Translations under genes and position numbers: made by a program
Shown here: one piece after another, positions 16,040-21,983 of the stretch
How positions within the stretch are numbered: position 1 is the stretch's first letter
Layout: each line of letters begins with the position of its first letter
Assembly: GCF_003991155.1 (NCBI RefSeq)
Contig: NZ_CP031293.1
Origin: Escherichia coli
Lineage (GTDB): Bacteria > Pseudomonadota > Gammaproteobacteria > Enterobacterales > Enterobacteriaceae
DNA length: 64,000 nucleotides
Reading direction: 5' to 3' (one strand)
The notes under the pieces: model-generated
Database searches by the model: none
What the model was told of the DNA's origin: nothing
The model's input: the letters and a program-made list of their open reading frames with translations, nothing else

Positions 16040-16054
16040 CACAACCTCTCTATA

Positions 16055-16080
16055 AAAAAGGTGCTACGGCACCTTTTTTA
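16055..16080 (+). terminator. Intrinsic terminator of the cyo operon
   Basis: aaaaaaggtgctacggcacctttttt: perfect 6-bp stem (aggtgc/gcacct), 4-nt loop, A-tract before and T-tract after, 16 nt beyond the cyoE stop. Confidence 0.8.
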
Positions 16081-16092
16081 TTGTCTGAGATC

Positions 16093-17403: not shown

Positions 17404-17961
17404 CTAATTTATTGGTGGTCCGGAAGACTTTCTGTCAATCATGTCTTTTCGACATGTAGCCAGAAAGTCTTCCGGACCACCATAAATGTGGACACCTTTA
17501 TCAAGATATTCCTTCGCTTTCTTACAATCTACCTCAACATACTGACCATTGGCGTACATCATGCCCAACCTGGACCATGCTAAATTCACACCGTATTGCG
17601 CGGCCTGATTAAATAGTGCATACGCTTTGGCATAATCCACCCGCACCAGCTCACCGTCGTAGTAGATACTCCCCAGCGCTAACGGAGCTTCTCTATCACC
17701 GTGTTTAACGGCTAACTCAAACCATTTAATCGCTTCCTGAACATCAGGTTTGGTATCAAAGCGAGGCTGATAATATTCCCAGCCTAACAGGCTCTGCGCG
17801 TCGACATCTCCCAATTCAGCCATTTTATGCAGTCTATTTATAACATCGGGCGCAGGTTGACCACCGTATATGCTGTCATACAATTCATGCGCTTTCTCGC
17901 TTGCCACCACGCATGGTGAAACTATTAGCATTAAAGAAAATAATATTCTTTTAGTTAACAT
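17404..17961 (-). CDS. Secreted Sel1-like repeat (TPR-like) protein
   Basis: ORF 17404..18021; probable start at the ATG at 17961 giving signal peptide MLTKRILFSLMLIVSPCVVA, followed by Sel1-type repeats (AQSLLGWEYYQ..., ALGSIYYDGELVRVDYAKAYALFNQAAQYG, AWSRLGMMYANGQYVEVDCKKAKEYLDKG). Confidence 0.65.
   Translation of the reverse strand: MLTKRILFSLMLIVSPCVVASEKAHELYDSIYGGQPAPDVINRLHKMAELGDVDAQSLLGWEYYQPRFDTKPDVQEAIKWFELAVKHGDREAPLALGSIYYDGELVRVDYAKAYALFNQAAQYGVNLAWSRLGMMYANGQYVEVDCKKAKEYLDKGVHIYGGPEDFLATCRKDMIDRKSSGPPIN
17415..17481. repeat. Nested perfect palindrome (21-bp inverted repeat around an inner 6-bp hairpin)
   Basis: ggtggtccggaagactttctg (17415-17435) and cagaaagtcttccggaccacc (17461-17481) are exact reverse complements; the 25-nt spacer contains catgtc-ttttc-gacatg. 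Confidence 0.85.
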
Positions 17962-19764: not shown

Positions 19765-19850
19765 TACCAGGCCTACAAAGTTCCTGAGTTACAAACCTTT
19801 GTAGGCCGAATCAGGCGTTCATGCCGCATCTGACATGAACAAAACGCACA
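19765..19850. repeat. REP/BIME-type extragenic palindromes between the convergent yajR and yajQ
   Basis: gcctacaaag...ctttgtaggc palindrome and a gccgaatcaggcgttcatgccgcatctgaca REP-like unit. Confidence 0.6.
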
Positions 19851-19859
19851 TTGTCGCGA

Positions 19860-20351
19860 TTAATCGCGGAAGTTTTTGAACTGGAACGGCTGACCGAGAT
19901 CGCCACCACGTACCATCGCCATGACAGCCTGCAAATCATCACGAGATTTACCCGTTACGCGGATCTCATCGCCCTGAATTTGCGCCTGCACTTTCAGTTT
20001 GCTGTCTTTGATCATTTTGACGATTTTCTTCTGAGTCGCGCTTTCAATGCCCTGTTTCAGTTTCGCTTCCACAAACCAGGTTTTACCGCTATGAACGATA
20101 TTTTCCGGTACATCCAGTGAACTGCCTTCAATGCCGCGCTTCAGCAACTTGGCACGCAGAATATCCAGCAACTGATTGACCTGGAAGTCGGACTCGCTCA
20201 ACACTTTGATAGTTTTGCTGGCGTCATTCAGCTCAAATGAGGCTTCAACGTTACGGAAGTCAAAACGGGACTCCACTTCGCGGCTCGCGTTATCGACCGC
20301 GTTACGTGCTTCCTGAAGATCAACTTCAGAGACAATATCGAAAGATGGCAT
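19860..20351 (-). CDS. yajQ: Nucleotide-binding protein YajQ (UPF0234)
   Basis: ORF 19860..20519; recognised protein [42 protein letters not shown] begins at 20351. Confidence 0.9.
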
Positions 20352-20429
20352 CTTTTCCTCTCCCTTCATTTTTGATGCGAAGCATAATACCTGCAAAGTT
20401 AAATAACCAACAGTCCTGCACCAGGACGT

Positions 20430-20475
20430 ATCCCTTAATTGTGCATAGTCGCAACAGCATGCACAATTAAGGGAT
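20430..20475. promoter_or_regulatory. 17-bp perfect inverted repeat in the divergent yajQ/panE promoter region
   Basis: atcccttaattgtgcat (20430-20446) - 12-nt spacer - atgcacaattaagggat (20459-20475), exact reverse complements. Confidence 0.5.
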
Positions 20476-20518
20476 AGCCTTATTGAACACCCGGAGTGGT
20501 TGCGGGTGAGGAGGAACA

Positions 20519-21983
<1,465 letters not shown>

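Follow-up and report, generated by a model that had tools for sequence, protein, structure and literature searches.

A perfect 18-nt inverted repeat between yajQ and panE of Escherichia coli coincides with a published RNase III hairpin and with mirror-image transcription starts

Introduction

The leaders of the rnc, pnp, and adhE mRNAs are processed by RNase III, which cuts an untranslated stem of about two helical turns and alters the half-life of the mRNA. The bioA and bioBFCD transcription units have divergent, overlapping promoters and a palindromic operator, bioO, which is bound by BirA. The spacer between yajQ and panE in E. coli can be compared with both. Like the RNase III-processed leaders, it specifies an untranslated stem of about two turns that is cut with an effect on mRNA half-life, yet it differs from them in that the stem is a perfect palindrome in the DNA, can form in both senses, and overlaps the core promoters that we propose below. 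Like bioO, an inverted repeat of ∼40 to 48 bp, it lies over two divergent promoters (here putative ones, both of which it covers), but the likeness is geometric only: bioO is imperfect and has a known repressor, whereas the yajQ-panE repeat is perfect and is not conserved.

The hairpin itself is already known. Gordon, Cameron & Pfleger (2017; mBio 8:e00128-17, PMC5371410) compared RNA-seq coverage between wild type and an rnc deletion, with reads mapped to NC_000913.3, and reported an RNase III site at 444573, 'Intergenic (panE-yajQ)', where the rnc mutant gave 96 reads and wild type 2 to 3. In vitro transcripts were cut by purified RNase III, and several cuts were mapped via 5' RACE. With half-lives of ∼6 min in wild type and ∼3 min in the rnc mutant, yajQ mRNA was stabilized two-fold, and ahpC and pflB are further stabilizing cases from this study. 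Besides drawing the hairpin, the authors found both in vitro transcripts cleaved, pointed out that the complementary panE-sense strand could form the same hairpin, and proposed that a stabilizing hairpin remains 5' of yajQ after cleavage.

Two other described systems are close. Huang et al. (2020; mBio 11:e00485-20, supplementary file 7) captured RNase III-dependent dsRNAs of ∼22 nt with p19, including from overlapping divergent 5' regions, and yajQ/panE likewise yields dsRNA in its overlap; their mechanism is intermolecular and adjoins the repeat, so that the hairpin is an extra, intramolecular substrate. Warman, Forrest, Wade & Grainger (bioRxiv 10.1101/2020.01.31.928960) described bidirectional promoters in which symmetry also makes promoter elements coincide on opposite strands; in that class the starts are 7 to 25 bp apart (mode 18 bp) and the −10 elements overlap.

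Here, we found that the coordinates of the repeat and the RNase III site coincide, that two mapped starts are mirror images within the repeat, and that the repeat is a single-copy, lineage-restricted insertion. We put at roughly three in four the probability that this 48-bp repeat has a dual role, as the published RNase III hairpin in RNA and as a pair of putative mirror-image sigma-70 promoters in DNA. What is added to the known hairpin is modest, namely the twin-promoter reading and the insertion history; in the parts of the Gordon et al. paper used here, neither the starts inside the arms nor a lineage-restricted insertion is mentioned.

Methods

The window is the whole 64,000-nucleotide stretch of E. 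coli DNA that was analyzed, and positions refer to it unless another coordinate system is named. K-12 positions were converted as window position = 465034 − NC_000913.3 coordinate, a relation checked base by base that places K-12 444683 at window 20351, the first base of the yajQ start codon. U00096.2 positions were brought to NC_000913.3 with an offset of 776, confirmed via yajQ (443907). K-12 and the window show only two differences in the spacer, both outside the repeat. We took from the publications of others the RNase III dependence of the site, its cleavage in vitro, the effect on half-life, the mapped 5' ends, and the detection of dsRNA in the overlap. Promoter elements were scored with a simple position-weight scan (PWM) with frequencies from classical compilations. 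For comparison among species, the locus was fetched via PanE from 80 Enterobacteriaceae species.

Results

The yajQ coding sequence occupies 19860 to 20351 on the minus strand, and the spacer that separates it from panE is 167 nt long. The divergent yajQ/panE context given in an earlier sequence-only reading of this DNA stands: K-12 carries the same annotation, as do 5,424 E. coli genomes. A 271-base segment enclosing the repeat was matched in 5,424 of the 5,426 complete genomes of this species, always between yajQ and panE. The features of the spacer are as follows.

20413-20427, minus strand: short stem-loop GUCCUG-GUG-CAGGAC followed by a U-rich run (−8.1 kcal/mol; terminator-like match)
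20429-20446, no strand: left arm of the repeat, TATCCCTTAATTGTGCAT, 100% complementary to 20459-20476
20447-20458, no strand: 12-nt spacer, the loop in RNA, AGTCGCAACAGC, asymmetric
20459-20476, no strand: right arm of the repeat, ATGCACAATTAAGGGATA
20429-20476, minus strand: RNA hairpin in the long yajQ leader (fold; Gordon et al. 2017 Table 1 and Table S1)
20519-21430, plus strand: panE coding sequence, with its ATG at 20519

A repeat search delimited the arms (20429-20446 and 20459-20476) as 18 nt each, fully complementary and 12 nt apart. The sequence-only reading had reported a 17-bp perfect inverted repeat, which is real and perfect but extends one base further on each side, and it had called the whole a 46-bp perfect palindrome. 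That description does not hold: the spacer AGTCGCAACAGC is not symmetric and has no self-complementarity, and the element is therefore a 48-bp interrupted inverted repeat. The second short palindrome of that reading, GTCCTG-cac-CAGGAC, is present at 20413-20427. Within the 64-kb window the 18-mer occurs solely as the two arms (0.02 expected), and the longest perfect arm in 60 simulated first-order Markov sequences of 64 kb (loop 3 to 30) was 13 nt. The 18-nt repeat is far beyond chance.

As RNA, the 48 nt fold with −26.9 kcal/mol in the yajQ sense (z = −7.7 versus shuffles) and −26.3 kcal/mol in the panE sense (z = −8.6 versus shuffles). The stem comprises 18 perfect pairs and two further pairs predicted inside the loop (20 bp), which makes it intramolecular and about two helical turns long, as expected of an RNase III leader hairpin. 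A supercoiling-driven cruciform in the DNA was set aside, because the 12-nt spacer makes extrusion costly. We also rejected an intrinsic terminator for the 18-bp stem, as no U run follows it in either sense; the terminator scan flagged just the 6-bp stem at 20413-20427 on the minus strand. An Rfam scan of 20000-20900 with E up to 10 returned only a meaningless snoRNA match. The K-12 position 444573 converts to window 20461, which is base 3 of the right arm, and the yajQ-panE RNase III site is thus the identical element and not merely a similar one. The sequence-only reading had offered a structured RNA as one of two options for the repeat, and this published site (Gordon et al. 2017, PMC5371410) confirms it.

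Published maps of transcript 5' ends place three yajQ-sense starts around the repeat. Cappable-seq (Ettwiller et al. 2016, U00096.2 coordinates) gave all three, which we list together with the promoters outside the repeat.

20376, minus strand: yajQ start, U00096.2 443882, Cappable-seq relative read score 63.7
20431, minus strand: yajQ start, U00096.2 443827, Cappable-seq relative read score 43.2
20618, minus strand: yajQ start, U00096.2 443640, Cappable-seq relative read score 35.9
20376-20389, minus strand: proximal yajQ promoter, −10 TATTAT (reverse complement of 20384-20389), +1 A at 20376, 25-nt leader (Cappable-seq, SMRT-Cappable-seq)
20618-20630, minus strand: distal yajQ promoter inside panE, −10 TACAAT at 20625-20630, +1 G at 20618, 267-nt leader (Cappable-seq, Kim et al. 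2012)

Table S1 of Kim et al. (2012) gives the yajQ start at 443640 with a 5'UTR of 267 nt. The distal start is thus backed by two independent published data sets, and the hairpin therefore lies in a real transcript; among the three yajQ transcripts, solely the one with the 267-nt leader (from 20618) spans it. SMRT-Cappable-seq (Yan et al. 2018, NC_000913.3 coordinates) reported yajQ starts at 444602 and 444657, each one base below its Cappable-seq counterpart after the 776-base offset. The same study reported a single start for the panE-yajL operon (b0425/b0424), at 444560, which is window 20474 and lies inside the right arm. We had foretold a panE start at 20474 from the symmetry of the repeat before the SMRT-Cappable-seq position was seen. 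The starts at 20431 (yajQ) and 20474 (panE) are exact mirror images inside the arms, 43 bp apart. Kim et al. (2012) list no panE start, and among the sources examined the panE start comes from one data set, SMRT-Cappable-seq. The sequence-only reading was silent on the panE start and on the one yajQ start inside the arms, though both are in published start-site maps.

We considered whether the element might be a hairpin only, with the 5' ends at 20431 and 20474 being artifacts or processing ends from a stable stem and not true starts. Read in its own sense, each end falls 3 nt within the 3' foot of the stem, just before a GGG:CCC block where reverse transcriptase would stall, and SMRT-Cappable-seq sets its 5' ends by cDNA tailing. 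Cappable-seq, however, captures 5'-tri/diphosphate ends and ligates the adaptor to RNA, so that a stall cannot yield the end at 20431, and in SMRT-Cappable-seq incomplete cDNA/RNA hybrids are digested by RNase If ahead of the second cap capture. Because of these two steps, a reverse-transcriptase stalling artifact at the stem is unlikely. Processing fares no better, as RNase III products carry a 5' monophosphate and would thus not be capped. Moreover, the relative read score of 20431 is on par with those of the other yajQ starts, there is no other panE start in the SMRT-Cappable-seq data, and a PWM scan using sequence only predicts the same two positions. A hairpin without promoters is, in our judgment, quite improbable.

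The reading that we prefer adds to the hairpin two putative sigma-70 promoters, whose hexamers are assigned from the two mapped ends and the sequence.

20439-20474, plus strand: inferred panE-yajL promoter, −35 TTGTGC at 20439-20444, 17 nt, −10 CACAAT at 20462-20467, +1 A at 20474
20431-20466, minus strand: inferred second yajQ promoter, the mirror image, −35 TTGTGC (reverse complement of 20461-20466), 17 nt, −10 CACAAT (reverse complement of 20438-20443), +1 A at 20431

Both strands read TTGTGC, 17 nt, and CACAAT, followed 6 to 7 nt on by a mapped start at A. Each putative −10 overlaps the −35 of its partner on the opposite strand, and the 48 bp cover −46 to +3 of both putative promoters. The arrangement is not a bidirectional promoter in the sense of Warman et al., since 43 bp separate the starts and the −10 of one promoter overlaps the −35 of the other. 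The hexamer spacing fits sigma-70, and the starts come from cap-based methods. The hexamers are weak, matching 7 of 12 consensus positions; a promoter scan at a stringency of 9/12 found none in the region. In the PWM scan of 20300-20700, the pair ranks first on the plus strand and joint second on the minus strand and predicts the observed starts exactly, with a score of a size expected by chance about once per few hundred bases. The two promoters, so assigned, would compete for RNA polymerase.

A repeat that covers both mapped promoters could instead be an operator, at which a dimeric or tetrameric regulator would bind both arms, occlude both promoters in the manner of BirA at bioO, and thereby co-regulate panE and yajQ. 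The sole named candidate is NtrC. Three NtrC-like half sites are present (TGCACCA at 20417-20423, TTGTGCA at 20439-20445, and TGCACAA at 20460-20466), but half sites with centers 30 bp apart are unusual for a dimer. Neither TGCACCAnnnTGGTGCA (17-bp dyad, ≤3 mismatches) nor the GCAnnAnnnTnnTGC core (≤1 mismatch) has a match in 20352-20518, and we rejected an NtrC enhancer site given that the canonical dyad is absent. Genomic SELEX gave an NtrC peak at U00096.2 443,846, or about window 20412 (in vitro, 41% intensity; Shimada et al. 2021); SELEX is, however, coarse in resolution as well as in vitro, the peak was not followed up in that study, and its supplement has nothing for the yajQ-panE site. 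A literature search found no other paper linking a regulator to panE-yajL. The repeat is missing in most genera that have both genes, and the Citrobacter arms lose their symmetry save at the promoter-like cores. The operator explanation is accordingly improbable, and the dimeric-regulator site that had been the other option of the sequence-only reading finds no support: the repeat is absent from most Enterobacteriaceae, there is no canonical NtrC box, and in the Citrobacter freundii complex only the promoter-like ATTGT and ACAAT cores are invariant.

The two divergent transcripts also overlap. The panE mRNA (from 20474, plus strand) and the long yajQ leader (from 20618, minus strand) share 145 nt, 20474-20618. 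Among the p19 duplexes listed by Huang et al. (2020), those at U00096.2 443643-443777, which is window 20615-20481, lie within this overlap. The locus therefore has two RNase III substrates, the intramolecular hairpin and an intermolecular panE/yajQ duplex. The table of Gordon et al. is not strand-separated, and its in vivo signal could partly reflect the panE/yajQ duplex; their in vitro experiments establish that the hairpin alone suffices as an RNase III substrate.

The distribution of the repeat is narrow. Across the 80 species, the perfect repeat is confined to Escherichia (E. coli, E. albertii, and E. whittamii, the last with one G-to-A loop change), and 10 species of the C. freundii complex have a homologous, degenerate copy at the same site, e.g., GTATCCTTTAATTGTACGC...GCGAACAATAAAGGGGTAC, in which ∼14 of the 18 arm positions are complementary. 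The remaining 67 species lack it, including Salmonella, C. koseri, C. amalonaticus, Enterobacter, Klebsiella, Kluyvera, and Raoultella. Conservation across Enterobacteriaceae, which the sequence-only reading had named as a check on a functional site, is not borne out with 13 of 80 species carrying the repeat. In most noncarriers the spacer is ∼113 to 145 nt long and has a conserved gcgcTATACT where the carriers have the insertion; a few have spacers of 159 to 337 nt with unrelated extra sequence. The TATACT/TATAAT box is the best candidate for a panE-direction promoter in genera that lack the insertion. In Citrobacter it is kept beside the insertion; in Escherichia the corresponding bases are cctgcacc, part of the short palindrome. 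Given that Escherichia has lost this −10-like TATACT just upstream of the repeat, the insertion has probably assumed the role of panE promoter there.

Within the arms, ATTGT and ACAAT show no change in any of the 13 carriers, and other positions have decayed in Citrobacter, which keeps TTGTAC-18-AACAAT and TTGTTC-18-TACAAT. The Citrobacter stem is weaker (−16 to −23 kcal/mol in the panE sense and −7 to −15 kcal/mol in the yajQ sense), and one pair differs between the genera through a compensatory AU-to-GC change. All 48 nt are shared without change by 5384 of the 5412 matching E. coli genomes, and 9 more differ by a loop change only (G-to-A). Arm or edge variants occur in 28 genomes, the one identified being an IS insertion; in two strains an IS3-family element has inserted into the spacer, in one case within the right arm. 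The panE genes of E. coli and E. albertii are 11% divergent and the remaining spacer ∼5%, with unchanged arms, which is suggestive of constraint, although zero changes are just mildly improbable. The carriers do not group as sisters in a panE tree, so that either precise loss on several occasions or transfer by recombination must be part of the history of the repeat.

Such a distribution could arise from a mobile palindromic remnant (MITE or REP/ERIC-like) inserted independently in Escherichia and Citrobacter, which would fit presence or absence between genera at one site in carriers that are not monophyletic at panE, and the TA dinucleotides that flank the arms at both ends. Known enterobacterial MITEs are longer than 48 bp, and the REP consensus is GC-rich and not found in the repeat. 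Exactly one copy per genome is present in 5,412 E. coli genomes, and neither the 64-kb window nor the 80 related loci hold a second copy beyond chance 9- to 11-mers. A mobile origin therefore seems to us barely credible. Membership in a repeat family (REP/BIME, ERIC, or MITE) was rejected for E. coli on the single copy per genome (5,412 genomes).

A neutral history is harder to dismiss, although we hold it to be unlikely. In this account, a quasi-palindrome of the kind that Citrobacter still has was perfected in the Escherichia ancestor by one intra-strand template switch, and the promoter and RNase III activities are by-products. The patchy distribution, with carriers that are not sister groups in the panE tree, agrees with it, as do the ∼14/18 complementarity of the Citrobacter copies, an 18/18 symmetry beyond what either function requires, the tolerance of IS3-family insertions in two E. 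coli strains (one in the right arm), and the weakness of the conservation statistics. Against it stand the identity of the 48 nt in 5384 of 5412 E. coli genomes, arms that are the same in E. albertii and E. whittamii despite 11% divergence in panE, and the compensatory AU-to-GC pair between genera. In addition, the repeat supplies the sole panE start among the sources examined, with the ancestral TATACT lost, and its cleavage alters the half-life of the yajQ mRNA. Neither promoter nor RNase III function needs 18/18 symmetry, and the perfect symmetry may reflect a template-switch event, selection, or both.

Discussion

Combining the published RNase III data with the putative promoters, we propose the following course of events for the dual-role reading. 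The distal promoter in panE (20618) gives a yajQ mRNA with a 267-nt leader, in which the repeat folds into an 18-bp stem; the stem is cut by RNase III, which leaves a processed yajQ mRNA about twice as stable. The putative promoter with its start at 20474 would drive panE-yajL, and its mirror image with the start at 20431 would drive a second yajQ transcript. The long leader is antisense to the first 145 nt of the panE mRNA, and the two form dsRNA in vivo. The insertion, which is confined to Escherichia (perfect) and the C. freundii complex (degenerate), would have taken over the role of the panE promoter in Escherichia.

A more specific version holds that the repeat is a self-contained mirror promoter, a lineage-specific insertion in which each half serves as −35 in one direction and −10 in the other, which replaced the ancestral panE promoter in Escherichia and whose read-through RNA is an RNase III substrate. 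We regard the odds on this version as even. If it is true, one small insertion couples the initiation of two divergent genes with the processing of an antisense-overlapping yajQ leader, and the 43-bp geometry of its starts falls outside the published class of symmetric bidirectional promoters. The locus would then be a clean natural case of a short palindromic insertion that makes promoters both ways together with an RNA-processing site; in one genus the insertion seems to have supplanted the earlier promoter of a gene of the pantothenate pathway, and the locus would be well suited to studies of how sequence symmetry gives rise to promoters. The interpretation of the reported rnc effect on yajQ is also affected, because there are three yajQ transcripts and one of them has the hairpin.

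The short stem-loop at 20413-20427 corresponds to +5 to +19 of the transcript from 20431. It is a candidate 5' stabilizer or weak terminator-like element and may be the stabilizing 5' hairpin proposed by Gordon et al.

Stem pairing in Citrobacter copies of the yajQ–panE repeat

The Citrobacter copies of the 48-bp interrupted inverted repeat between yajQ and panE were compared for stem pairing in the two transcript senses, using Citrobacter loci L006-L022 in alignments A1 and A2. Seven stem positions varied on just one side; each of these was still paired in the panE sense, mostly via G·U, and mismatched in the yajQ sense. The proportion of paired cells in the stems was 85.6% in the panE sense versus 74.5% in the yajQ sense. 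This bias could reflect selection for a 5′-terminal hairpin on a panE mRNA starting from the retained TATACT box, or it could represent a strand-biased C-to-T mutation pattern.

A conserved stem-loop before panE

Two features lie immediately before panE:
20488-20508: stem-loop CACCCG-N9-CGGGTG with a 6-bp stem, directly 5′ of the panE Shine-Dalgarno
20509-20514: panE Shine-Dalgarno, AGGAGG

Among the 80 species compared, most kept the 6-bp stem-loop, mainly as CACCTG-N9-CAGGTG, and several carried U·G intermediates in the stem. The CACCCG and CACCTG versions differ by a compensatory C:G to U:A change, and Kluyvera has a different stem at this position. The element could be translational or could act as a DNA palindrome.

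IS elements in the yajQ–panE spacer

IS3-family elements were found in the spacer of two E. coli strains, L082 (NZ_CP019256.1) and L083 (NZ_LT883142.1), with insertion points at window ∼20467 and ∼20405, respectively. One of the two, an IS1203-like element in strain 13TMH22, breaks the right arm after ∼39 of the 48 bases of the repeat, and this insertion should cut panE off from its mapped promoter.

Inverted repeat at the proximal yajQ −10, and the yajQ ribosome-binding site

In many genera (e.g., loci L061, L064, and L079), we observed a palindrome, TTGCGTTGCA-taatacc-TGCAACGCAA, around the proximal yajQ −10 (window 20373-20398), with arms of 8 to 10 nt and a 7-nt spacer; the −10 itself, TATTAT, is present as its reverse complement within gcATAATAcc. 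The palindrome is conserved more widely than the 48-bp repeat, and its E. coli version is degenerate (gatgcgaagcataatacctgcaaag). It is possibly an operator or a leader hairpin for yajQ.

The yajQ Shine-Dalgarno region (AAUGAAGGGAGA, yajQ sense; window 20358-20378) is similar to the 3′ arm (AAUUAAGGGAUA; 20457-20477) of the hairpin formed by the 48-bp repeat in the yajQ leader. Because of this likeness, the hairpin 5′ arm, which is 76% complementary to the ribosome-binding site over 21 nt, could pair with it. RNAfold favored the perfect hairpin over this pairing, and the likeness may therefore be coincidence.

Other inverted repeats in the window

Three further perfect inverted repeats were present:
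16052-16081: ATAAAAAAGGTGC-tacg-GCACCTTTTTTAT
17413-17482: 22-nt arms TGGTGGTCCGGAAGACTTTCTG, 26-nt spacer
19770-19807: GGCCTACAAAG-N16-CTTTGTAGGCC, in the gap separating the ends of the convergent genes yajR and yajQ

The first looks like a bidirectional intrinsic terminator. The second, which is longer than the equally perfect yajQ–panE repeat, lies where a 205-aa ORF ends; in other annotations this ORF is called a tetratricopeptide repeat protein. The region around the repeat is accessory: of 5426 E. coli genomes, 1369 carry it. Four of the six matches listed came from non-identical genomes and were near full length, and in these four the match fell into two pieces that spanned ∼390 bp, versus 301 bp in the window.
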